The notes: generated by a model not told the origin, from the sequence alone. Shown: positions 10,992 through 63,825, numbered from the stretch's first letter. The stretch: DNA of 64,000 bases from Bacteroidota bacterium (GCA_013288555.1 JABDBQ010000006.1:20628-84627); one strand, 5' to 3'. A program made the numbers and translations.

Positions 10992-11114
10992 CCCCTCGCT
11001 GTCGCTCGCCTCTGGCGAGTGTCAGTTACTGCGGCCTCTGGCCGATAGTTTAATACATAAAGCGGCGGGACGCCTCAGTAACCCACACTCGCGAGACGCG
11101 AGCGAGAGCGGGGG
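10992..11114. repeat. Family B long-hairpin repeat, intact copy
   Basis: cccctcgctgtcgctcgcctctggcgagtgtcagttactg...cagtaacccacactcgcgagacgcgagcgagagcggggg. The arms are imperfectly complementary. Confidence 0.85.
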
Positions 11115-11135
11115 CATATCCCGACCAGCGGGGGA

Positions 11136-11543
11136 TCAATTTATTTTATCTTTAATAATGGCAACTCGCAAACTAAATATTGTAAGAATAAGCGTTACTG
11201 GTGCAAACACTATTTTTTCGAATTGATTGTCCGAAAGGAGATTCCCTAATGTATTGAAAACAAAAAACGCAAACATTATCCATAAGATAACCCGAATCAC
11301 CACAGGGTTGATACCTGTTTTTAAATAACCGGCTTTTATTACGGCAGCAGCAAGCATAAGGATATTTATAATGATTGATACGGTTTCCAGGGTCAGCATT
11401 TGCGACCTGACTTTCATCGTCCCGCCCCAAACCACCCCAAACGGGATTACGTTAAGCATCACCGACAAATGAAACAGAATAAAGAGAGATAAGATTGCTA
11501 TTAAACCGTTTAAAGCAAATCGCTCAGCAATAAATTTCTTCAT
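11136..11543 (-). CDS. Hypothetical polytopic membrane protein
   Basis: 135 aa with about four hydrophobic helices. Confidence 0.5.
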   Translation of the reverse strand: MKKFIAERFALNGLIAILSLFILFHLSVMLNVIPFGVVWGGTMKVRSQMLTLETVSIIINILMLAAAVIKAGYLKTGINPVVIRVILWIMFAFFVFNTLGNLLSDNQFEKIVFAPVTLILTIFSLRVAIIKDKIN

Positions 11544-11590
11544 TATTGTGTTTTGTTAATTAAGCAACCAAGTCACAGGCAACTTGCCCA

Positions 11591-12367
11591 TTAATTAAAA
11601 AGTTCGTGTGTACCATTTTCAATCAGTTCTTTCAAACAATTTAAAAATCTTCCACCATAAGCTCCATCTATCGGGCGGTGATCAAAAACTAATGTAACAG
11701 GTAAAATATTGTTAATAGCCAGATTATCGGAAGTCTTTTGAATAGCGCCTAAACACATTATCCCAATCATTGGCGATGAAATTATTGGGATGCCATTCTT
11801 TATTCCGAAACTCCCGAAATTTGTAATCGGGAAATTGCCATAGTTTTTATAAGCTGACCATCTGCGAATGGAAGGAATGCTTGTTACAATTGATCTGACA
11901 AATGCCGGTAACATAAAAAGGCTTTTTAGACTCAAATAAAAAGTCCCTTTGCCGTTACTAATATTTTCGACTTCCAGTTTAACTTCTTCCGAAATTTCTT
12001 TTAAGGATTTTGTGTCCGGGTTCTCAATGACCACATATTCCACATGGTTGCCTTCGGCAACGGGCAAATTGATTTTAATAGTATCAAATGAAACAATGCT
12101 TCTTCCGTCAAAATATCCAAACAGGTCCGGAAACTGTCTTAATGCTATCGATATGGCTTTTATCAATGCATGTGTCAACGTTATTTTATCTTCCTTATTT
12201 ATTGAATTGTTGTATTTTAAACGCTCTTCTAACAATTTATTTACGCTAATATCCAAAGTCACAGAAACGCATGGAACAGAGGAGCTTCGCTTAAATTTTT
12301 CAATTTGAAACTTTCTGAAAAGCTTTTCTCTTTCGATAAAGCTTTTATTTGCGATTATGGGTTTCAT
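11591..12367 (-). CDS. 2-oxoacid dehydrogenase acyltransferase catalytic-domain protein (no lipoyl domain)
   Basis: The C-terminal 'VFDHRPIDGAYGGRFLNCLKELIE' carries the DHRxxDG catalytic motif of E2 acyltransferases. Confidence 0.7.
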   Translation of the reverse strand: MKPIIANKSFIEREKLFRKFQIEKFKRSSSVPCVSVTLDISVNKLLEERLKYNNSINKEDKITLTHALIKAISIALRQFPDLFGYFDGRSIVSFDTIKINLPVAEGNHVEYVVIENPDTKSLKEISEEVKLEVENISNGKGTFYLSLKSLFMLPAFVRSIVTSIPSIRRWSAYKNYGNFPITNFGSFGIKNGIPIISSPMIGIMCLGAIQKTSDNLAINNILPVTLVFDHRPIDGAYGGRFLNCLKELIENGTHELFN

Positions 12368-12705
12368 TCAATTCTCTTTTGGGTGTAAATCGTGCACAAG
12401 ATCCTGAACCTGCAGGCAGCATTGCTTGCCTGCTAATACGTATGTAAAGGTACAGGAAAGAAAATCGGTATATGGAATTGTTTCAAATCTGGTTAGTACA
12501 CTTGCTGGTGTTGGTATCATTCGGGCGTTGCGAACACGAAACCAGTCCGCACGCGTTCGGAAACGCGCGCGAGCAAAGACAGACGCGCGTGAGCCGAGGC
12601 AAAGACAAACGCGCGCCAGCTGGGGATGGCAAAAAATAGTATTCTCCTTTTTTTGTTTTTCTCAAAAATCCCTTTAATTTTACTTGCGTATATTGAAAAG
12701 AGAAC

Positions 12706-12823
12706 CCCCTCGCTGTCGCTCGCCTCTGGCGAGTGTCAGTTACTGCGGCCTCTGGCCTATAGTTTAATACATAAAGCGGCGGGACGCCTCAGTAACCCAC
12801 ACTCGCGAGACGCGAGCGAGAGC
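12706..12823. repeat. Family B long-hairpin repeat, intact copy
   Basis: Near-identical to 10992..11114 and directly followed by a family A copy. Confidence 0.85.
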
Positions 12824-12827
12824 TTGG

Positions 12828-12904
12828 GTGGAAAAGGAATGCCATTTTTCGGATCACAGATCCTGATACTCAAAGATCGGGATGGCATATCCCGACCAGC
12901 GAGG
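12828..12904. repeat. Hairpin-array intergenic repeat, family A
   Basis: Near-identical to 7584..7661. Confidence 0.85.
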
Positions 12905-13015
12905 TCTTATTAATACCAATCATAAAAAAACAATTAGCGGTAGTTTTACTGTTTTTTATTAATATTTCTCTTTGTGTCTTTGATGGTGTTGTCATATTCA
13001 TATACTATCATCCCT

Positions 13016-13543
13016 CTAAAACGCATACCCTATTGCAATTCTTGGAAGTAAAACCCCACCGGGCCCAAGAAAATACCACCCAGCGTTCCCAAACCAGTCA
13101 GTCTGGTAATATATCGGGAGGAATTGCAAACCTATGGAAACATCAACTGTAAAATGGCTTTTTGGAAAAACCTTTCGCATACCCCAGGAAAATGAAGCCC
13201 CTCCTGTTCCTCCAATTTTGTTATTATCTTCCAGGCTTCCATAAGCAGATAACATGGGTTGTATGTAAAAAAAAGGAGCGTAATAATACCTGAAAAAAAT
13301 ATCTGTTTTATATCCGGGAACTTGTAATGACCCATAATAATAGTAATGTGCGCCAATGCCAAGGCTATATTTATTGTTCAACAGATGTTCGTAAGAAATA
13401 TGAACTTTCAAAACAAGGTCTATTGGTTCCAACGTAATAACATTCCTTGGGGAATCATTTTGGATAGTTTCTGCGGAGGCGTTTAAAACAGAAGAAAACA
13501 AAAACAAGAAACCCAATAACCATTTTACCTTGCTTATGCTCAT
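13016..13543 (-). CDS. Putative small outer-membrane beta-barrel protein
   Basis: Signal peptide (LLGFLFLFSSVLNASA), Tyr/Gly-rich alternating segments, and a C-terminal '...IAIGYAF' ending in Phe. Confidence 0.45.
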   Translation of the reverse strand: MSISKVKWLLGFLFLFSSVLNASAETIQNDSPRNVITLEPIDLVLKVHISYEHLLNNKYSLGIGAHYYYYGSLQVPGYKTDIFFRYYYAPFFYIQPMLSAYGSLEDNNKIGGTGGASFSWGMRKVFPKSHFTVDVSIGLQFLPIYYQTDWFGNAGWYFLGPGGVLLPRIAIGYAF

Positions 13544-50604: not shown

Positions 50605-50607
50605 TCC

Positions 50608-50757
50608 CCATGCTCTTCAGGATTTGCAATCCTGAAGTATAGCGTATGAGGATTTGTAATCCTTTTTTGAATCGATATAGCAATATGTATCTGTTATTTT
50701 ACGGACTGCAAGTCCTGATACTCAAAGGTCGAGACTGCAAATCACGACCAGAGGGGG
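50608..50757 (+). repeat. ~150-bp composite hairpin repeat (family C, ends in a family-A-like module), copy 1
   Basis: ccatgctcttcAGGATTtgcAATCCTgaagtat...AGGATTtgtAATCC...GGACTgcaAGTCCtgatactcaaaggtcgag...gaccagaggggg. A direct repeat of 51851..51997. Confidence 0.85.
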
Positions 50758-51322: not shown

Positions 51323-51850
51323 ATTTAGTAAGGATATATACACGAAGTTAACATCTATTCTTTTTAACAAGTTCAATTTGTTAAAAAACGCCTAAACTCT
51401 TCGGATTATTCCGGTTTATGAGGAGGGTGGTTCGGTCGATTAACACGAATCCAGGGATAACTTTCCAAATGGCAGGGTAGTCGGGACAAGTTGTGCTAAT
51501 GAGGGCAGGGGAATCAATGTGCGAATATGCAAATGTGCGAATATGCAAATTGATGAAAAATGATATCTCGTGATTTACCACCAAAGCCGTAAGTAGGGAT
51601 TCCCCCTTCCAAAGGGGGCAGGGGGATTTTACGCTCGCGTCAGCAAATTCCCCTCCTTTAGCAAGGAGGGGTGGCCTTTAGGCCGGGGTGGTTCGGTCGA
51701 TTAACACCAATCTTTATATGATTCTCCAAATGGCAGGGGTGTGTTCTACTACTCTCGCGCCAGCCTCCCTCTTTGAAGAGGGCAGGGAGATGAATACTCC
51801 CGCGACAGCAAACTCGCTCTCCGCACTCCCGCTCTCCGCACTCACTCCGC

Positions 51851-51997
51851 CCATGCTCTTCAAAATTTGCAATCCTGAAGTATGGCATATGAGGATTTGT
51901 AATCCGGTTTTGAATCGATATAGCAATAAGTAATGTTATTTACGGACTGCAAGTCCTGATACTCAAAGGTCGAGATTGCAAATCCCGACCAGGGGGG
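51851..51997 (+). repeat. Family C composite repeat, copy 2
   Basis: A direct repeat of 50608..50757. It truncates the hsdM stub at 51997. Confidence 0.85.
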
Positions 51998-52095
51998 AGC
52001 TGCTCCAGGTAATCTCCATACCCGACCCCATCATCCCTGAGGGTATTGCAGAAACTCCATACTTTAGATACGATCGCGGAATTGTTGTTTGACAT
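51997..52095 (-). pseudogene. hsdM: hsdM 5' stub (type I R-M methylase, codons 1-33 only)
   Basis: MSNNNSAIVSKVWSFCNTLRDDGVGYGDYLEQL compares with the EcoKI HsdM N-terminus MNNNDLVAKLWKLCDNLRDGGVSYQNYVNEL. The frame then runs into repeat C2. Confidence 0.7.
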
Positions 52096-52096
52096 T

Positions 52097-53602
52097 TTAT
52101 TTTTTAATCTTTTCCATTGCTTTGCTCGTTAAATAGTATCCCCCAGTATTTGCGGACGTGCCTCTAAATTCTATTAGATCAACGCTTCGTAGTTTCTTTA
52201 GGTACCTTTCTAAACTGCCATATGAATAGCTGGTTTCATCCTGATATTCAGGAATTCTAAGACCTTCATTTAGTGCAATTACAAATAAAACATGTACAAG
52301 TTTTTCTTTTACTCCTTTAGTTGCTCCTTCAATTGCTCCTTCAATTACTCCTTCAACAATTCTCCATTTTTCATTAGCATATACACCATCAGTTACTCCT
52401 TCACTTACACCATCACTTGCACCATCAGGTTCCAATTTTAAAGGAATAGTTGTTCTGAACGTGTCTTCATCAATAAATGAGGGGATAGTTCCTGGGCTGT
52501 AAATCGTTAAATATTTGGTAATGTTTCGAATACCGGAGCCTAATTCTTCAACCCGGCCCAACTGGGCGAAAAACCTCGCAATTGTAGGATTTTTAGGGAA
52601 TGGCGAAAATTTTTGAGGATTAATGGGGCCATGCCTGATTGGTTTATTTGCATTGTCTGTTTCGACACCGTCTTTGTAAATAATAAACTGGGCAGGGCTT
52701 GCATTGGTATATTCTCTATGGACAATAAGATTAGCTACTACTTCTCTAAAAATCCAGTCCCTCACATTAGTGCGCTGATCCCCCGAAATATAGAAACGAT
52801 CTGGAAGATGTTTGCCAACAAAGCCCATTAACAGGTCATAGGCTTCCAGAAGGTTTGTGCGGATATCCAGCCTGTCATCATATCTGTCCGTATTTTCTTT
52901 CCTTAATAGGGCGTCCGTTCTATAATGCGGCAATACAGAATGGATAACTTCGTCCCGGCCCAGTAATAAAACCGCTGCGAGCGTATATCCGTCATTCCCG
53001 GTTTTATAATCTAGTTGCCAAAGCCCTGCGCTTGCGAGAAATTGATCGTCAGGTAAAGCAAGCCAGGGATGGTCCGGCGTGTTGCTTCTGATAAGCTGCC
53101 GGGCCTTATCAAGCAGGCCTGGTTTAAAATCGCTAATCTTAATATATGGGAATATCTGATTTTCTGTGTAATAAGCAGATTTACGTGTATATATTCTGCT
53201 TATATCAACATCTGATTTTACCTTTATATCGGCATCTGCAACACGGTCATATACTATTCCATCGCAACGATGCACCTGTGAACTTTGTGGTACGTAAGTA
53301 TAAAGGATAGTGTCATTTCCAATTGTAGCCTCGAATAAATCAAGTAGATACGGTGGGTTCAATTTGCTGGGATTATTGCTGATCGTTGCAAAATCTGCTT
53401 TGATCTTTGAAACATTTGCCCGATCAACACCTATAATAGTTCCATTGTCTTTTACACCAAGCAAAATATAACCACCTTGTCTGTTGAGGAAAGCACAAAC
53501 GGATTCGAATACAGTGTTTGGTAAAGCCCAGCCAGATTCCTTAAATTCTACAGCGTTTCCTTCACCGTGATCAATAATGTGCCTAATTTGTTCCTCCGTC
53601 AT
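52097..53602 (-). CDS. AlbA_2 (Schlafen-like) DNA-binding domain + HATPase_c_4-type ATP-binding protein
   Basis: 'HGEGNAVEFKES...GGYILLGV' is AlbA_2. 'ANLIVHREY' is the ATPase-like core. There is an (E/D)GV-rich repeat 'DGASDGVSEGVTDGV...EGVIEGAIEGA' and a C-terminal wHTH-like region. Confidence 0.65.
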   Translation of the reverse strand: MTEEQIRHIIDHGEGNAVEFKESGWALPNTVFESVCAFLNRQGGYILLGVKDNGTIIGVDRANVSKIKADFATISNNPSKLNPPYLLDLFEATIGNDTILYTYVPQSSQVHRCDGIVYDRVADADIKVKSDVDISRIYTRKSAYYTENQIFPYIKISDFKPGLLDKARQLIRSNTPDHPWLALPDDQFLASAGLWQLDYKTGNDGYTLAAVLLLGRDEVIHSVLPHYRTDALLRKENTDRYDDRLDIRTNLLEAYDLLMGFVGKHLPDRFYISGDQRTNVRDWIFREVVANLIVHREYTNASPAQFIIYKDGVETDNANKPIRHGPINPQKFSPFPKNPTIARFFAQLGRVEELGSGIRNITKYLTIYSPGTIPSFIDEDTFRTTIPLKLEPDGASDGVSEGVTDGVYANEKWRIVEGVIEGAIEGATKGVKEKLVHVLFVIALNEGLRIPEYQDETSYSYGSLERYLKKLRSVDLIEFRGTSANTGGYYLTSKAMEKIKK

Positions 53603-53637
53603 CCGACAAAAATAAGAAATATGCAAGGAAGTGAGTG

Positions 53638-53712
53638 GCCGACCCCATCATCCCTGAGGGTATTGCAGAAACTCCATACTTTGGAGACGATCGCGGAATT
53701 GTTGTTGCTCAT
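53638..53712 (-). pseudogene. hsdM: Second hsdM 5' stub (codons 1-25)
   Basis: MSNNNSAIVSKVWSFCNTLRDDGVG, then unrelated sequence. It differs from the other stub only at synonymous positions. Confidence 0.7.
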
Positions 53713-53765
53713 ATTATCTAAATTTCAGATAGACAATTACTTCTTTTTTAAAATTTACGATGCTT

Positions 53766-54689
53766 TTAATCAAGCTTTTCTAAATCCTTGTCTGTGTTTA
53801 TTATTATAATAGCTTGTGGCTTATAGGACCTGTCAGTATTGCGCTCGTTTCGGACTAAAAAATCCTGAATTAATTGTTCTTTGCTTGATTTTATTATGGG
53901 TATAAGTCCTCCATTTTCAGGAAATAACTCAAGCAAGTAATCTGCAAAAAAGAAAAAGAAAAATTTTGCGCTTTTAAATTTGTTTTGCGCTTTCTTTTTC
54001 TTGTTATATTCTTCAGCCATTTCAATTGTAAAATATGCAAGATCATGAAATGGAATAGCTGCTTGAACATTTATAAGATGTTTCTCTATCTCCCCCGGAT
54101 TATATTTAAAATAGGGATGTCGAAAAACAGGAAACATTCCTGATTTATGTAATTCAGAAAAGGATATTTGGTTATTTATCGCAGATTTCATTTTAGATGT
54201 AGTCGTTATTGTTATTCCCATCGACTCTTTATCAAAGTCAGTAAAAGAATTATAATATTGTTCTAGATCTAAATCATTAATATCTAAATATTTATAAAGC
54301 GCAAATAGGGGAATCCCCTCTTTATTAACTTCTTTTGAATAACTCTCCATGTCGTTAATCTGATCTATTGAAATACCCTTATAAGTTCCATTCACAGAAT
54401 AGTCATAAATTTGACTTTTGGCTTGTATGTAATATCGTACGAATTTATTCTTAGAAACACTTCCAAGACATAATTCAAAATCATACCCCTCTTTAGCTTC
54501 CCGAATAGGACCTATCATTTTAATCGTATCAATATCTTTACAATTACTATTGGCCAAAACTTTTAAGGCCATAGATGTTAAGCCTTCTTCGCGAACTTGA
54601 AATATATTATACTTTTTGTCAGATAGAGGAGGGGTCATTTCTTCCCAAATCTTATAAGAGGCTTGTTTTAGTGCTTTTTCTAAATTCAT
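53766..54689 (-). CDS. Hypothetical protein with a PD-(D/E)xK-nuclease-like N-terminal core
   Basis: E64...D70-F-E72...Y-I-Q89-A-K91 with predicted beta-strand spacing. The C-terminal half is unrecognised and contains a KKKK/FFFFFF low-complexity tract. Confidence 0.45.
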   Translation of the reverse strand: MNLEKALKQASYKIWEEMTPPLSDKKYNIFQVREEGLTSMALKVLANSNCKDIDTIKMIGPIREAKEGYDFELCLGSVSKNKFVRYYIQAKSQIYDYSVNGTYKGISIDQINDMESYSKEVNKEGIPLFALYKYLDINDLDLEQYYNSFTDFDKESMGITITTTSKMKSAINNQISFSELHKSGMFPVFRHPYFKYNPGEIEKHLINVQAAIPFHDLAYFTIEMAEEYNKKKKAQNKFKSAKFFFFFFADYLLELFPENGGLIPIIKSSKEQLIQDFLVRNERNTDRSYKPQAIIIINTDKDLEKLD

Positions 54690-54700
54690 AACATAATTTT

Positions 54701-54793
54701 TTACACCAATTTCCCTTCAAATGCCTTTTTCAATATACTTTGCCGGAGGGTTTCGGCTTGTTGGAGGCTGTTGTTTATGGTTTCTTCTACTTT
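54701..54793 (-). pseudogene. hsdS: hsdS 3' stub (type I R-M specificity subunit C-terminal helix)
   Basis: Hand translation gives KVEETINNSLQQAETLRQSILKKAFEGKLV*, which carries the conserved HsdS C-terminus '...LRQSILKKAFxGxLV'. Confidence 0.65.
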
Positions 54794-54841
54794 ATTGTAA
54801 TATTTTATCAAAGTAATATTTACATTTAGACATTTATTATC

Positions 54842-57034
54842 TTATAATACGCATTCAAAAATACCTCTAACTTCTAAAGCATATAGTTCATCCCCTTGAA
54901 GTTCTAAATTTTTATAGTCATCATTATTACTTAATGGTTTGAGTGTTATTGACTCGTGTTGCCATTGATTATTTTCAACGATTTTCTTACTGTGATATTC
55001 TTTAACAGTATATGCAGATCCCGAATCAGGATCCTGTCGGCCACTAAGTTCTACTAAAACAATTTTTCCATTTCTTGATCCGCCTGTATATTTTCTAAAC
55101 AAGCAAATGGATCCATTTGGAATTATCTTATTCATGGATTCACCTTCAATCCTGCAAGCAAATAAATCTTTAGACGCTTTGTATCTGGATGGTATTTTAA
55201 CCCATTCATAATCTTCAGTATTGACAATCTGTGTTTCTGAAAAATTTCCGGCCGCAGCCCTTAAATTATAGAGAGGAACGCTGTTTTCATACGGATTAAC
55301 TTCCTCAATAGGAATAATCGGAGTGGGTTGTTCTACTTTATAATTTGCAATATGTTTTGAAAAATAGTCCCTGAGATTTTCATCACAAACATAGATATAT
55401 GTGCCTTTAATGCCTCTGAGCATAATAGTTTTATAAATGTTTATGATAAACTGTTTTAATGCTTCAGGATCGGATATCCCTTGGTAACCGTTTCTGTCAA
55501 AATAATTCTCCGACTTTATAATGATTTCATCATTGACTTTATCATAGCTGATTTCATTACCAAAAATGATTCCCCCGTAGTTTAAATCATATCCCTGAGT
55601 GGTGTGAATACATCCAACTTCGTTGATTGAATTCTCAGAATTCACCCAATCGATATTGCCACTATTCCATTTCAATTCCAGGTTGTCTATTTTAATATCG
55701 TACAGGTTTGGATCTTTCTGTGATACCCATTTCCAGGAGTATCCGGCGACCAATCTTGCTAAGCCATTTTCAGTATTTCTCAGCCTGATCTGCCTCTGCA
55801 TATCCTCCAGAGAATCGAACATGAGAAACTCATAATCGGGAGAATCAAATACTTTTTTTGTTGGTTCAAGTTTGCAATTCAGAAGGTCATCTATATATTT
55901 AACATAGTCATTTCCACCCCTAACCCTGAATTGAGATTTTAGATATTCTATTTTAGTAAGCCTATTGAGTTTTAACTTGTCGAAATCTTCTTTTTTGGCA
56001 TCGGATGGCTTTATTGATTGATTTTCATCATAAAACAAGATTGCCTTTGAAGATTGTTTTAGAATCCAGTCCAATTCGCTGCAAGTGTTTTTATCCAACT
56101 GCAGTTTACTGCAGACCTGATCGAATACGCCAAAATAAGTCCCTAAATTCACTCGTCGCCTCAATCGATGTGACTCATCAACAATAAGAATATCAAACTT
56201 AGTATCAGCAACCTCAGAAGGCCCGATAGCCATGCTCGCCTTTAGGCCTTTGACATTTGCAAAAACTTTTTTTAGCGTTTTCCGAAATGAAGACATTGGC
56301 ACAACCAATGCCATTTTGGGATCAGGATACTTAATCTTTAGCTCGAATATTAATTCTTTAAATTCAAGTTCATCATATTCAAACTCGTTGAAATTGAAGT
56401 CTTCGATATTTGTATTAAGCAACTTGAAAAGAAAAGTTGCTAAAATAGTTTTTCCTGTTCCTGCGCCGCCTTCAATGACAATATTTTTGAAGTTGTCGTT
56501 AAGCAAACACTTAATAATCACCAGTAAACCGCGTCGCTGTTCTGTACTTAGACTTTTATAGGGCGAGTATTTAAACAAATCAGAATTGTCGATATATTCA
56601 ATAGAATGTTTTGATATACCTTCGGTTCTTAATTTGTCCCAGATTGATTTGAAAATGTCCAAGTATACTTCCTTTTTTTGGTAGTAATTATGATTTGCTA
56701 ATCCTGCGTTTCCATTTTGTAATTTGTATTGCCCGTCACCTGAAATATATTTTATCAGGTTAGATTCAATATCTAAAGTGGCTGATTTATTAAACTTACC
56801 GCTCGTAATTAGGTGAACTGCGGTTAGTTTACTTTTTGATTTGCTTTTTAGATGCGTGGTTATCCTGGCGTAGGTATCAGTTGTCTCACCTACATATGCT
56901 TCTTTGATATTACCATCGCTTAAAATATAGACTATCGGCCATAAGTCCTTCGCGTAGTGGAGATTTTGAAATTTATCAATGACCCCGGGATTGAATTCAA
57001 ACTTATTTATGATGAAGTCATTATGCAGGTTCAT
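54842..57034 (-). CDS. GIY-YIG nuclease / DUF2075 (Schlafen-type) P-loop NTPase / S24 LexA-like peptidase fusion protein
   Basis: GIY-YIG: 'IVYIL-x9-YVGET', R, 'DIESNLI', 'LQNGN'. Walker A is 'GGAGTGKT' and Walker B is 'ILIVDESHRL'. S24: 'VPLYNLRAAAGNF' (Ala595-Gly596), 'GESM' (Ser633), 'YTVKEY' (Lys678). Confidence 0.8.
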   Translation of the reverse strand: MNLHNDFIINKFEFNPGVIDKFQNLHYAKDLWPIVYILSDGNIKEAYVGETTDTYARITTHLKSKSKSKLTAVHLITSGKFNKSATLDIESNLIKYISGDGQYKLQNGNAGLANHNYYQKKEVYLDIFKSIWDKLRTEGISKHSIEYIDNSDLFKYSPYKSLSTEQRRGLLVIIKCLLNDNFKNIVIEGGAGTGKTILATFLFKLLNTNIEDFNFNEFEYDELEFKELIFELKIKYPDPKMALVVPMSSFRKTLKKVFANVKGLKASMAIGPSEVADTKFDILIVDESHRLRRRVNLGTYFGVFDQVCSKLQLDKNTCSELDWILKQSSKAILFYDENQSIKPSDAKKEDFDKLKLNRLTKIEYLKSQFRVRGGNDYVKYIDDLLNCKLEPTKKVFDSPDYEFLMFDSLEDMQRQIRLRNTENGLARLVAGYSWKWVSQKDPNLYDIKIDNLELKWNSGNIDWVNSENSINEVGCIHTTQGYDLNYGGIIFGNEISYDKVNDEIIIKSENYFDRNGYQGISDPEALKQFIINIYKTIMLRGIKGTYIYVCDENLRDYFSKHIANYKVEQPTPIIPIEEVNPYENSVPLYNLRAAAGNFSETQIVNTEDYEWVKIPSRYKASKDLFACRIEGESMNKIIPNGSICLFRKYTGGSRNGKIVLVELSGRQDPDSGSAYTVKEYHSKKIVENNQWQHESITLKPLSNNDDYKNLELQGDELYALEVRGIFECVL

Positions 57035-57375
57035 AACTCATCATATTTTTTTGCGGTTCCCCTGGCTTTATCTACCGGATATTTTACAGAATTTATTTTG
57101 ATCTTTTCACGAATAATGTCATTTACATCGAAACCATATTTTTCAGCAATCAGGAAAGCATATGTGAATATATCAGCTAATTCTTCTTTTACTTTTTCTT
57201 TGTTTGCTGATTCAGCATCTTTCCACAAAAAGAGTTCTAACAATTCGCTAGTTTCAATATTCAATGCGATCGCCAGATCCTTCGGATTATGGAATTGTTT
57301 CCAATCCCTTTCATCGCGGAATTTTATTATCTCAGCGATTATTTCATCAAAATCATTCATTGGATTATCTGGCAT
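57031..57375 (-). CDS. MazG-like nucleotide pyrophosphohydrolase (single-domain)
   Basis: 'RDERDWKQFHNPKDLAIALNIETSELLELFLWK' and 'VKEELADIFTYAFLIA' are EExxE / EExxD metal-binding helices. A 4-nt overlap joins it to the 730-aa gene. Confidence 0.75.
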   Translation of the reverse strand: MPDNPMNDFDEIIAEIIKFRDERDWKQFHNPKDLAIALNIETSELLELFLWKDAESANKEKVKEELADIFTYAFLIAEKYGFDVNDIIREKIKINSVKYPVDKARGTAKKYDEL

Positions 57376-57877
57376 TTCTTAATTGCATGCAATTGAGAGG
57401 CAAGTTAGGTAAAAAACAATATGGCATACAAATCGGGAATTACGTTTTGCAAATAGGTTGATGCATCTAAGTCAGCTCAGTTCGTAAATGAAGGGATTGC
57501 GGGTCAGGCTGAGGCAAGCTCAAGCCGCCTGCAATGACGACTTCTACAAGGATTTTTTAGTAAAAGTTAAAACATTTTCAAAAATATTTTCGCTTGTAAT
57601 CCCCCTGTCGTTTCGAATCTTAACTAAGAGAGATTCGTGACTTTGTCACCTGCCCCTGAAGCAGTCCCCGTAGAGATGGGAGGCTCAGCCCTTCGACCGC
57701 TTCGACCCCTTCGACTGCTTCGACAAGCTCGGGAAACAGAGAGCGAGAGAGCGGAGAGCAGGGGCAAACTCAGGGAGCGGGTTTTTCAATTGCCAACATA
57801 TTACTAACAAACACTAACACTATTATTGTTGGTAGTTGGCAGATTCAATCAGGAATGATGAGGGCGGCACATAGTAA

Positions 57878-58726
57878 TTATGAATTGCTGTCATCCTTTT
57901 CTTTTGTTTTCGCCGGCAAGGTTTTTTTGGCGTTTAACGCAGAGACTACTTTTTTGCCCGTCCTTGCTTCCAGCTCCTTTCTTGCTACTTTTGCCACGTT
58001 TCCACCTTGCCTCGCCACTTTTTTGCTTTCTTCGAAACTGGCGGGATTTACGGCTTGAGAAATATCTTTTGTTGAGGCTTCTGCAAGCATATTCAGGATC
58101 AACTCCGTATTGGTCATGTTATCCTTCAGATTTTCCTTTTTCAAGCCTTTAAAGGTTTTGTATTCTTTTGTAGTTTTATCAGCCCAGACCTTAGTAATGA
58201 TATCAGTAAGCGTTGCGAATTGAGTACCGGCCTTGAGCCCGCGCTTTTTCCATTCATCGGTAAGTTCTTTTCGGATTTCAATACTTTTCAGGCGTTGGTT
58301 TATCCAGTTTTCAGAGTATCCCATTTGCAGGTACTGTTCCAAAGCCCTGTCAATGCTGAGTTCAGGGTCCTGCATTTCATCAAGCCTTTCGGAAGCCACT
58401 TTTGCCAACCAGAGTTTAAAAGGTTCGGCTTTGGGTGAAGGAATAGACTGTATAAGCCTGAAAAGTTGTTCAGTATCAGCCACATCAGTCATTCGCATTT
58501 TCCCGTCAGGTGCAAGCAATTTCAAACCGTTACAATTTGTAACGGTTTCGTTTCCCTCGTCTTTTAGCCTTTTCTTCATGACACGCCAGTATACCTGTGG
58601 ATTGGGGCTTTCTGTTAAGGCAGCAATTATATCAACAATGGCAAATAGCCACTTCTCCTCAGTTCCGTCCCAAACAGTCCTGACTTTTTTATCTTCAAAT
58701 ATTTTAACAGTGTCCTTTTTATTCAT
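57878..58726 (-). CDS. BRO-N domain protein (phage antirepressor-like)
   Basis: 'KIFEDKKVRTVWDGTEEKWLFAIVDIIAALTES...' is Bro-N-like, followed by a helical C-terminal region. Confidence 0.6.
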   Translation of the reverse strand: MNKKDTVKIFEDKKVRTVWDGTEEKWLFAIVDIIAALTESPNPQVYWRVMKKRLKDEGNETVTNCNGLKLLAPDGKMRMTDVADTEQLFRLIQSIPSPKAEPFKLWLAKVASERLDEMQDPELSIDRALEQYLQMGYSENWINQRLKSIEIRKELTDEWKKRGLKAGTQFATLTDIITKVWADKTTKEYKTFKGLKKENLKDNMTNTELILNMLAEASTKDISQAVNPASFEESKKVARQGGNVAKVARKELEARTGKKVVSALNAKKTLPAKTKEKDDSNS

Positions 58727-58819
58727 AATAATGCTGCTTTGTACAAAGATCGGATAAGCAATGCAAGTTAAACAAAAATAAAAAAGTAAAACATTTTCAA
58801 AAATATTTTCGCTTGTAAT

Positions 58820-61530: not shown

Positions 61531-62286
61531 AAGGGGAGTTCGCTATATATGTAAGTAAAACTAAGGCGTAAGGGATAAGGCGTAAGGCGTAAGGCGTAAG
61601 TCAATTTGGAAATTTGAGTCCCGTGCATTCGGGATGGGAATGCCTTGCCAGCGGACAATGGGCGAGAGAATCATGCTTATCATTTAATCATGTGAATCAT
61701 GGTTCAGACAATTACTCGCGAGAGGATTAATGAATTATATCTGCGGGAATCAGATTTAGCTCCGCTGAGCCCTTCGGGGTTCTCCTTGGGGTCGAGATGA
61801 CAAATGCATTGTATACTAAAGACTTACGAGAGTAGTCATGCGTCAGCCACTTACGCCTTACGCCTTATGCCTTATGCCTGAAACAGTTATATAAATGAAA
61901 GTTAAAATGTATAAGCCAAACCGTAAAAATGTACACCCAAACGTGACACTTAACCCGCTCATTTCAAGCAGATAAAGCCAAAATGTTAAAGAAAAAATCA
62001 AAAATGTACGCTATAGTGAACAGCAAGGAATCAGGGAATGAATGGGTTGGGCCCTTTGGGAAGTTCAGGAACGGTAGGGTTTGTTGTACAAAGTGTGATG
62101 GTAATCGACGGAACCACCCTCCCGAAGAAGTCGGGACAGGCGCCCTCTGGGCACCCCTCCTTAAAGGGAAGGAGGGGAATGGTGCTACTTCCACCATTGG
62201 TGGTATATCAGCAGAAGTGAATTTTCAGTTCAATTTTCAAATTGTCTTATTGCCTCATTTTCAAATTGTCTAATTGTCTCATTGCC

Positions 62287-63825
62287 TCATTGCCCAATAA
62301 GAACGGTTCCATCCATTTCAGCGGGAGCGGGGATGCCCATCAGGCTGAGGATGGTTGGGGCAATGTCGGCCAGTCGTCCGGGATGGATCTGGGCAGGGCT
62401 GTTGGACTGGCTCACGTAGATCATCGGTACAGGGTTGGTGGTATGGGCGGTATTCGGCGAACCATCAGGGTTTACCATAAATTCACTGTTGCCGTGGTCA
62501 GATATGATGATGGCATCGTAGCCGTTCTCCAGGCAGGAGCCGATGAGCCTTGTGGCGCAGGCGTCAATGGTTTCAAGTGCTTCTACCACGGCCGGGAACA
62601 CGCCACTGTGGCCCACCATATCGGGGTTGGCGTAGTTGAGGACAATAAGGTCGGGTTTGGCGGTCTCCATCTCATGTATGGCCGCATCGGTTACCCCAGC
62701 GGCACTCATAGAAGGCTGCTGGTCATAGGTAGCCACTTTCGGCGAAGGCACCATGATCCTGTTCTCGCCCGCAAAGGGGGTTTCGCGCCCACCAGAGAAG
62801 AAGAAGGTCACGTGCGGGTACTTCTCCGTCTCAGCAATGCGTAGCTGCGTCTTACCCGCCTTCTCGATCACCTCACCCAGGGTCATCTTCAGGTCCTGCT
62901 CTGGGAAGAGGATCTTTACATTCTTGTAGGTATGGTCATAGGGCGTCATGGTGATGTAGTACAGGTCCAGCGGACTCATCCCATAATCCGGGAACGACTG
63001 CTGGCTCAGTGCGAGGGTCAGTTCACGGCCCCTGTCGGTCCTATAGTTGAAGAAGAGCACTACATCGCCGGGCTCTATGGTCGCGAGGGGTTTGGCATCC
63101 GCTCCTGTTATATAACTTGGTTTGATAAACTCATCCGTGATGCCGTTCTGATAGTTGGCTTCTATCGCATCATGAGCAGAAGCAAAGCCCTCGCCCTCTC
63201 CATCTACAAGCAGGTCATAGGCCTGTTGCACGCGCTCCCAGCGTTTGTCGCGGTCCATGGCATAGTACCTGCCAATGAGGGAGGCTATTTTGCCGGTGGT
63301 CTTTGCCAGGTGGGCTTCCAGGTCTTTGATATAGCCTGCGCCACCATGCGGGTCGGTATCCCTTCCATCCATAAAAGCATGTATAAACACATTGTCGACC
63401 TGGTTTTCGGCGGCAATGGTGCAGAGGCCCTTTAAATGTTCGAGGCTGGCATGTACGCATCCGTCAGACACGAGGCCCAGCAGGTGGACTTTCTTGTTAT
63501 GTTCTTTGGCATATTTAAAGGCATCGAGCAGTACCTGGTTATGGTCGATCGATTTGTTCTCAAAAGCTTTGTTGATGGCCACCAGCATCTGGTACACCAC
63601 CCGTCCTGCACCAAGGTTCATGTGACCTACTTCGGAGTTGCCCATCTGTCCGTCAGGCAGGCCCACATTTTCTCCGGATGTTAACAAATAGCTGTTGGGA
63701 TACTGGTTGAACAGCCCCTTGATGAAGGGCATATTGGCAGCTTCTACGGCATTAATTTTAGGATCTTTCACACCGATTCCCCATCCATCGATAATAAGGA
63801 GCGCAACTTTTTGACTTTGATTCAT
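62287..63825 (-). CDS. gpmI: 2,3-bisphosphoglycerate-independent phosphoglycerate mutase
   Basis: 'LLIIDGWG', 'GQMGNSEVGHMNLGAGR', 'DGRDT' and 'SDHGN'. Confidence 0.96.
   Translation of the reverse strand: MNQSQKVALLIIDGWGIGVKDPKINAVEAANMPFIKGLFNQYPNSYLLTSGENVGLPDGQMGNSEVGHMNLGAGRVVYQMLVAINKAFENKSIDHNQVLLDAFKYAKEHNKKVHLLGLVSDGCVHASLEHLKGLCTIAAENQVDNVFIHAFMDGRDTDPHGGAGYIKDLEAHLAKTTGKIASLIGRYYAMDRDKRWERVQQAYDLLVDGEGEGFASAHDAIEANYQNGITDEFIKPSYITGADAKPLATIEPGDVVLFFNYRTDRGRELTLALSQQSFPDYGMSPLDLYYITMTPYDHTYKNVKILFPEQDLKMTLGEVIEKAGKTQLRIAETEKYPHVTFFFSGGRETPFAGENRIMVPSPKVATYDQQPSMSAAGVTDAAIHEMETAKPDLIVLNYANPDMVGHSGVFPAVVEALETIDACATRLIGSCLENGYDAIIISDHGNSEFMVNPDGSPNTAHTTNPVPMIYVSQSNSPAQIHPGRLADIAPTILSLMGIPAPAEMDGTVLIGQ

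Follow-up and report, generated by a model that had tools for sequence, protein, structure and literature searches.

Two adjacent minus-strand genes in a 64,000-nt stretch of DNA from a Bacteroidota bacterium (GCA_013288555.1 JABDBQ010000006.1:20628-84627; this whole stretch is the window, and coordinates are window positions) appear to form a self-contained, mobile two-gene cassette that most likely, in our slightly better than even judgement, serves as an Nhi-like conflict module against phages or other mobile genetic elements (MGEs). The upstream gene (57031..57375) encodes a MazG-like all-alpha (d)NTP pyrophosphohydrolase of the DCTPP1/RS21-C6 type. The downstream gene (54842..57034) encodes a 730-aa fusion of a GIY-YIG nuclease, an SF1-type SLFN-g3/DUF2075 helicase and an S24 domain, and is the putative effector. 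A preliminary description of this DNA had listed three intact, co-directional minus-strand open reading frames (ORFs), 57375->57031 (114 aa), 57034->54842 (730 aa) and 54689->53766 (307 aa), with the stop and start of the first two sharing the 4 nt ATGA; the ORF listing and the sequence agree with it on all of these points.

The MazG-like gene and the fusion gene form a conserved unit

We scanned one genome per species across 185,579 species, which yielded at least 172 relatives, and recorded gene order at the best 80 loci. The MazG-like gene is adjacent to and upstream of the fusion in all 80, and stop and start codons overlap in 75 (by 4 nt in 58 and by 1 nt in 17), far beyond chance, in keeping with the obligatory MazG partner that had been proposed. 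A mirror-tree comparison over 150 adjacent pairs gave r=0.72 (Mantel p~0.001). The neighbourhood around homologues of the 730-aa protein is therefore conserved for the first two genes and not for the third, whose family occurs at 0/80 loci. The AlbA_2 and BRO genes that also lie near the pair in the window are each found at 0/80, and a search for a third partner in both locus sets found none conserved, the largest flanking family reaching 7/80 and 8/82 loci. Taken together, these data show two co-translated genes that behave as a single unit in inheritance and exchange.

The pairing extends beyond proteins with an S24 domain. We searched the representatives of 50%-identity clusters exhaustively and obtained 3,331 clusters at E<=1e-3. 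Most of the best clusters are 550–600 aa long and align to residues ~5–565 only, and therefore consist of GIY-YIG and DUF2075 without S24; a minority of 705–820 aa carry S24, and still others bear an extra domain, HSDR_N at the N-terminus or HTH_3 at the C-terminus. A metagenome scan with an S24-less query gave 80 loci (34–49% identity), of which four had too little flank and 76 were judged. Of these 76, 70 have a MazG-like gene as an immediate neighbour: 18 of the 20 S24-bearing loci with enough flank, upstream, and 52 of the 56 such S24-less loci, upstream in 42 and immediately downstream in 10. On megaplasmids of Bacillus mycoides and B. thuringiensis, a gene annotated ‘nucleotide pyrophosphohydrolase’ directly precedes a ‘DUF2075 domain-containing protein’; the window copies are 51–52% identical to the Bacillus proteins in the MazG-like enzyme and ~33–35% in the helicase. 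As judged from these comparisons, the MazG-like gene with GIY-YIG/DUF2075 is an older and much wider unit than the S24 fusion.

Several relatives of the pair sit in distinctive surroundings. Both Bacillus megaplasmids (L164, L165) carry an HNH endonuclease gene ahead of the MazG/DUF2075 pair, and the surroundings of the pair on pBMB431 include a NUDIX hydrolase, a zeta toxin and SocA. A Lentisphaeria metagenome-assembled genome (MAG; L073:6597-10758) has one MazG-like gene directly upstream of the fusion and a second downstream, with an HNH-HIT fusion protein between the nuclease-helicase and the second copy. At two loci of a relative, P0003 (76% identical; L168:3670-5507 and L169:3482-5319), an AAA_15/AAA_21 ATPase gene (411 aa) and an overlapping 203-aa gene come after the pair and together look like another defence-type gene pair. 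At L077 the fusion ORF is interrupted early and may be a pseudogene.

The enzymes of the pair look active

The domain calls of the preliminary description, namely MazG, GIY-YIG, DUF2075 and S24, all score over their Pfam thresholds, GIY-YIG marginally. For the small gene, the assignment draws on its pairing, on PF12643 (71.7 bits against a cutoff of 27; 6e-20) and on the DCTPP1 structures in the PDB (6sqw/2a3q; E=1.3e-15, a nearly full-length alignment). Across 63 MazG-like orthologues, residues E41, E44, E47, E65 and D68 are invariant, as are W25, F28, H29, W51 and Y99, aromatic and histidine residues that align with the pocket motifs of DCTPP1. The ORF is as originally given, at 114 aa, and its true start is likely the second ATG at 57360, giving 109 aa: 33 of the 63 orthologues begin there, and so does the gene as called independently on a second contig (L167).

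The fusion was assigned from Pfam matches, homologues and motifs. Its helicase domain (residues 184–551; 55382..56485, minus strand) matches PF09848 (SLFN-g3_helicase/DUF2075) at 208.9 bits against a cutoff of 24 (1.7e-61). The Walker A motif GGAGTGKT (56447-56470) and the Walker B motif ILIVDESHRL (56162-56191), both noted previously, read directly from the minus-strand sequence; GGAGTGKT and VDESHRL are invariant in the fusion homologues. Searched against PDB profiles, the whole fusion gave no match, and Foldseek with a low-confidence model of it returned generic SF1/SF2 helicases (Upf1, Dna2, nsp13, RecD2) at low TM-score.

The GIY-YIG core spans residues ~30–120 (56675..56947, minus strand), with VYIL...AYVGE, R57 and E90 as its landmarks, and is identified by PF01541 and by conservation. 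About half of the fusion homologues pass PF01541 in precomputed Pfam annotation, with relatives reaching 36 bits. Within the S24 clade, Y36, Y47, G49, E50, R57, H61, E90 and N107 are invariant, and their equivalents are invariant in the S24-less alignment too. The predicted secondary structure fits the beta-beta-alpha-beta-alpha order, in a low-confidence model.

More than 120 full-length homologues of the fusion (727–739 aa, 67–84% identity) have the same domains, under generic database names such as ‘DUF2075 family protein/predicted GIY-YIG superfamily endonuclease/SOS-response transcriptional repressor’. All four catalytic modules of the pair (MazG-like, GIY-YIG, helicase and S24) are under purifying selection, and the invariant catalytic residues make its enzymes look active.

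The S24 domain is an optional module common to restriction enzymes

The LexA/UmuD-type S24 domain occupies residues 587–730 of the fusion (54845..55276, minus strand). It matches PF00717 (Peptidase_S24) over residues 587–714 at 36 bits against 23.3 (6e-9), and its profile matched solely LexA structures in the PDB, weakly (E 0.05–0.4). In the profile alignment, AAG at residues 594–596 (55247-55255) falls on the Ala84-Gly85 cleavage site of LexA and resembles it, Ser633 within GESM (55136-55138) falls on the Ser119 motif, and Lys678 within TVKEY (55001-55003) is the dyad lysine. The Ser/Lys dyad is invariant, also in 15/15 divergent S24-bearing cluster representatives, of which 13/15 have an AA[A/C]G motif.

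A PLD-SNF2-DUF3427 type IV restriction enzyme ends in an S24 domain with 45% identity (E=6e-46) to that of the window, which marks S24 as a portable module; the S24 domains of the fusion and of the DUF3427 enzyme are far nearer to each other than to LexA. We counted DUF3427 enzymes near the pair by tblastn, with the S24 domain left out of the query, and found them in 6 of ~160 loci. A type IV enzyme with an S24 tail was present in 2/2 of those loci whose fusion bears S24 (L017 and L046) and in 0/4 whose fusion lacks it, which are small numbers; the co-presence may reflect S24-mediated pairing of the type IV enzyme with the neighbouring fusion. These S24-tailed neighbours of the pair lie at L046:6379-9747 and L017 ~10998-13529. 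S24 is an optional addition: among the GIY-YIG/DUF2075 proteins one clade has it, and restriction enzymes share it.

The 307-aa gene belongs to a decayed restriction-modification operon

The preliminary description had counted the 307-aa gene (53766..54689, minus strand) as a third component. Homologues, context and motif place it instead outside the pair, probably in the DUF6615 family. The ORF itself has no significant Pfam or NCBIfam match: against DUF6615 (PF20320) it scores 14.7 bits where the cutoff is 23.8, while its homologues score 23.5–40.6 bits and three pass. Only four homologues, 34–49% identical, were found among 5.8 billion proteins. On their contigs the gene order is hsdS -> DUF6615 -> GmrSD -> hsdM, so that the relatives lie in type I restriction-modification (R-M) operons, between hsdS and GmrSD/hsdM.

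The window retains the remains of such an operon. The 152-nt spacing upstream of the 307-aa ORF is as reported, and is not an empty gap: tblastn and a reading of the sequence show that it encodes the last 31 codons of hsdS (54704..54796, minus strand; ...LRQSILKKAFEGKLV*), 93.5% identical to residues 470–500 of HsdS at L082 and stopping 14 nt before the 307-aa start codon. On the other side, also on the minus strand, are two 5' stubs of hsdM, one of 26 codons (53635..53712) in the upstream copy of a direct repeat, D2, and one of 33 codons (51997..52095) in the downstream copy, the latter 100% identical to residues 1–33 of HsdM at L081. None of these remnants is part of the pair. Given the hsdS tail before it, the hsdM stubs after it and the context of its homologues, the 307-aa gene is, as read from sequence, a passenger gene in a type I R-M operon that has decayed; adjacency inside one island had misled the first reading. 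By the same reading, the MazG/fusion pair abuts the decayed operon and has apparently replaced most of hsdS.

The layout E...D-x-E...Q-x-K that had been noted in the 307-aa protein is present (E64, D70-x-E72, Q89-x-K91), with D70-x-E72...Q89-x-K91 invariant in the family alignment and with Q where D/E is expected. Its predicted topology, alpha-beta-beta-beta-alpha-beta, is compatible with PD-(D/E)xK, in a model too poor for a structural test (predicted local distance difference test score, pLDDT, 45). A PD-(D/E)xK nuclease is thus compatible with the motif and the predicted secondary structure, on which this reading is based.

Between the two hsdM stubs is an AlbA_2/HATPase_c_4 gene (52097-53626, minus strand), flanked by copies of the hsdM 5' end at 52022-52100 and 53639-53717, a 79-nt direct repeat at 92% identity. 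This looks like a Campbell-type insertion into, or a cassette exchange at, the hsdM start. When the window is compared with unrelated metagenomic contigs (L081-L083), the hsdS tail and hsdM head are 93–100% identical at the protein level, whereas the DUF6615 protein between them is only 42–48% identical. Near-identical ends around a divergent gene suggest a conserved slot between hsdS and hsdM, one that would exchange passenger genes (DUF6615, GmrSD, AlbA_2).

The pair is mobile, patchily distributed and essentially absent from phages

At the nucleotide level, other loci resemble the window over 57370->54829 only, a span that covers just the two ORFs. We looked for conserved cassette ends or repeats and found none, with similarity stopping at the ORFs. 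The pair occurs across many Bacteroidota classes, in Balneolaceae/Gracilimonas and in one Lentisphaeria MAG, with proteins 60–73% identical. Its distribution is patchy and resembles that expected of horizontal gene transfer (HGT), insertion sites vary, and it is carried on megaplasmids.

We also considered a phage-borne gene. The 2.9 M contigs of IMG/VR contained no relative, and GenBank phages gave only four weak matches, the best of them to an UNVERIFIED faecal contig on which the pair is present as well; on these grounds the idea was rejected. The pair is essentially absent from phages.

A PADLOC and Pfam scan of the 129 nearest neighbours provided counts per family. Elsewhere, the pair is found near type IV DUF3427 restriction endonucleases, C5 methyltransferases, a PADLOC-type dCTP deaminase, HNH and HNH-HIT proteins, as well as NUDIX hydrolases (8/82 loci of the wider family), zeta toxin, SocA and the AAA_15/AAA_21 pair.

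An SOS-regulated operon was likewise considered and rejected. The two Bacteroidota SOS-box motifs, CTAA-N5-TTAG and GGA-N5-TCC (both taken from PMC8565304), were each found in 1/63 regions upstream of the operon, which is background level (0.4% and 3.6% per 200-nt window).

The island around the pair

The preliminary description had placed the block between rng and gpmI, with a ParE fragment, an AlbA_2 gene, a BRO-N gene and IS1595 around it, and domain matches confirm this setting. The island of ~11.6 kb is bordered on one side by the RNase G gene rng (PF10150; 49090-50604) and on the other by gpmI (iPGM_N; 62287-63825). Its surroundings had been called decayed throughout; the term fits the hsdS and hsdM stubs and the ParE fragment, while the AlbA_2, BRO-N and IS1595 transposase genes are intact. 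GC content across the pair and its third neighbour is 0.30–0.36, against ~0.40 for the window, and an Rfam scan of the island returned zero matches.

Other elements of the island deserve mention in their own right. The BRO-N gene (57878-58726, minus strand) is a full-length PADLOC match to the candidate single-gene system PDC-S13 (E=2e-135), and 39-nt direct repeats bracket it (57562-57600 and 58781-58819, 95% identical), giving the look of a cassette insertion. Direct repeats of ~150 nt (50607-50756 and 51850-51997, 92–95% identical) flank the ParE fragment and small ORFs; they contain many short hairpins (GGATTTGCAATCC, GGACTGCAAGTCC) and have no Rfam match. Between the IS1595 region and gpmI are inverted arrays of GGCGTAAG-type repeats (61564-61601 and 61849-61879), 93–94% complementary and ~250 nt apart. 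Upstream of the MazG-like gene, a GC-rich intergenic segment (57620-57810) also lacks an Rfam match.

Discussion

An Nhi-like conflict module is the function we favour for the pair. The combination of a nuclease with DUF2075 resembles Nhi, and the fusion has weak similarity to hidden Markov models of Nhi and AbiO, in their helicase core, and of PDC-S14. The window pair lies within an island of R-M, toxin-antitoxin (TA) and insertion-sequence (IS) genes, and its S24 subfamily is common to the fusion and a PLD-SNF2-DUF3427 restriction enzyme. By analogy with Nhi, the helicase would translocate on foreign or aberrantly replicating DNA, which the GIY-YIG domain would cut. The co-translated MazG-like enzyme would, by homology, hydrolyse dCTP or 5-modified dCTP. 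This activity might starve phages that build modified DNA, or it might keep released or salvaged modified nucleotides out of host DNA and so spare self from the nuclease; the latter agrees with the pair's occasional linkage to enzymes that depend on modified cytosine, to dCMP/dCTP deaminases and to NUDIX hydrolases. The S24 domain may self-cleave at AAG, possibly stimulated by a RecA filament on single-stranded DNA (ssDNA), and/or dimerise, to license or tune the effector.

Several observations weigh against a conflict module. Similarity to proven defence proteins is remote, as the PADLOC matches are weak and partial: in PADLOC v2.0.0 the MazG-like protein has zero matches, and the fusion has weak partial matches to Nhi, AbiO and PDC-S14 only, that to Nhi (PDLC02372; E=2.8e-9) covering model positions 261–371 of 470 (~110 positions), which is not near full length, and that to AbiO reaching 6.7e-7; relatives give matches of a similar kind, with values down to 1e-13. 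The nuclease call is narrow, since PF01541 barely exceeds its gathering score (23.2 against 22.6 bits, residues 34–71) and a PDB profile search with the N-terminal domain gave no match; the AlphaFold2 model of the fusion (pLDDT 62) is too poor for a test of domain arrangement. Identity of ~70% across classes is unusually high conservation for a defence gene. The genes next to the pair are a mixture in which housekeeping functions are frequent (MnmG, TonB receptors, TPR proteins, MFS transporters). Finally, two S24-bearing fusions in the metagenome, at L095 and L097, have no detectable MazG-like gene. The fusion at L097 is placed between MFS transporters and an aldo-keto reductase.

Some of these points would suit an accessory module for DNA repair or damage tolerance, in which a UmuD-like S24 domain targets the nuclease-helicase to RecA-coated or stalled forks and the DCTPP1-like enzyme clears non-canonical dNTPs from the pool. 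Homologues of DCTPP1 have a house-cleaning role, the SOS response makes use of S24/UmuD domains, and eukaryotic SLFN helicases respond to replication stress; the housekeeping character of many flanking genes and the high sequence conservation agree as well. We nevertheless consider this reading unlikely. Neither Bacteroidota SOS box is enriched upstream, and the absence of these LexA boxes weakens it. The very patchy, HGT-like distribution, the variable insertion sites and the carriage on megaplasmids beside HNH, zeta-toxin and SocA genes also speak against it, as do the sharing of S24 with type IV restriction enzymes and the lack of S24 in most family members. More doubtful still is a toxin-antidote or abortive-infection arrangement, with the MazG-like protein restraining a toxic nuclease-helicase, by binding or by hydrolysis of a signal nucleotide, until phage interference frees the nuclease. 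A small upstream gene is indeed translationally coupled to a large effector, the two co-diverge tightly, and the MazG-like protein has diverged less than the effector has (51% and 33% identity, respectively, to the Bacillus copies); moreover, E. coli MazG modulates a TA system through nucleotide hydrolysis. Yet 10 of the 56 S24-less loci with enough flank have the two genes in the opposite order, and the fusions at L095 and L097 that lack a MazG gene argue against lethal toxicity of the fusion. The invariant MazG catalytic residues show that activity matters, and identify no signal.

Joint action of all three genes, the MazG-like enzyme, the fusion and the 307-aa PD-(D/E)xK-like protein, is very improbable indeed. 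They are co-directional, the third lies 152 nt from the second, the stretch between these two shows nothing like a terminator on the minus strand (in a promoter and terminator scan that used a sigma-70 model, the wrong promoter type for Bacteroidota), and the same arrangement with identical proteins exists on a second contig, probably from the same organism. Against this stand the absence of the 307-aa family from all 80 loci of the pair, the place of its homologues in type I R-M operons, the hsdS tail that separates it from the fusion, the hsdM stub after it, and the end of cassette similarity at 54829.

Beyond the conflict module itself, a more ambitious proposal, which we regard as rather improbable, has two parts. 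S24 would be an autoproteolytic licence, triggered by RecA filaments or ssDNA, for Schlafen-type nuclease-helicases and type IV enzymes, with ssDNA from phage replication or DNA damage as the trigger, making the fusion a bacterial counterpart of damage-gated SLFN11. The DCTPP1-like enzyme would provide ‘immunity by sanitation’ by destroying modified dCTP, so that cytosine-modifying phages are starved and salvaged modified nucleotides are kept from marking host DNA for self-restriction. If true, this would be a new two-layer logic that combines nucleotide-pool immunity with nucleic-acid immunity.

Should the pair prove to be a defence system, the bacterial immune repertoire would gain a widespread module, from a family with thousands of members across Bacteroidota, Bacillota and others. 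Three of its features would be unusual: the obligate partnership with a nucleotide pyrophosphatase related to human DCTPP1; a Schlafen-family helicase, relevant to the ancestry of the SLFN antiviral and replication-stress proteins; and, in one clade, a predicted self-cleaving domain of the LexA type, which type IV restriction enzymes carry too. The presence of S24 on both kinds of enzyme suggests a general proteolytic switch for restriction-type nucleases.

Comparison with known systems

Each part of the pair has a recognisable relative. The MazG-like enzyme has the acidic metal ligands and the ERDW.QFH and F.WK pocket motifs in common with DCTPP1/RS21-C6 (PDB 6sqw, 2a3q, 2oie); unlike that stand-alone house-cleaning gene, it is bacterial, 109–114 aa long and encoded in a mobile operon with a nuclease-helicase. 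The S24 domain resembles LexA, UmuD and lambda CI in its Pfam match, its Ser-Lys dyad and its aligned Ala-Gly (or Cys-Gly) site, and differs from them in lacking a helix-turn-helix (HTH), in standing at the C-terminus of an enzyme and in belonging to a distinct subfamily.

The helicase has the Pfam SLFN-g3_helicase domain of the eukaryotic Schlafen group 3 proteins (SLFN5/11/13), which also couple a nuclease to a helicase and take part in antiviral and replication-stress responses. The SLFN core is a tRNase where the pair has GIY-YIG, and the likeness, drawn from sequence, is remote. DUF2075 genes, some of them fused to GIY-YIG, have been described next to DUF3427 enzymes in defence islands (McaZI group; PMC6765204). 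Adjacency of DUF3427 to our pair is occasional and not obligate, and PMC6765204 mentions neither a MazG-like partner nor S24. Searches of a paper library returned no article joining DUF2075 and MazG and none on S24-tailed defence nucleases; together with the PADLOC results, they yield no match to a named system, in line with the earlier proposal of a candidate undescribed one.

The closest parallels are Nhi of S. epidermidis (SERP2475; Bari et al., bioRxiv 10.1101/776245), the Nhi-like systems (Millman et al., bioRxiv 10.1101/2022.05.11.491447) and lactococcal AbiO, which likewise combine an N-terminal nuclease and a DUF2075/SF1 helicase in one polypeptide. The nuclease of Nhi is PD-(D/E)xK, whereas that of the fusion is GIY-YIG, and the Bacteroidota clade adds S24. 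Nhi acts as a single gene; the near-obligate MazG-like partner suggests that the fusion, unlike Nhi, is not sufficient alone for phage defence. From its sequence, the pair is credibly an unnamed system in which an Nhi-like nuclease-helicase comes with an obligate partner and a regulatory domain that are both new.

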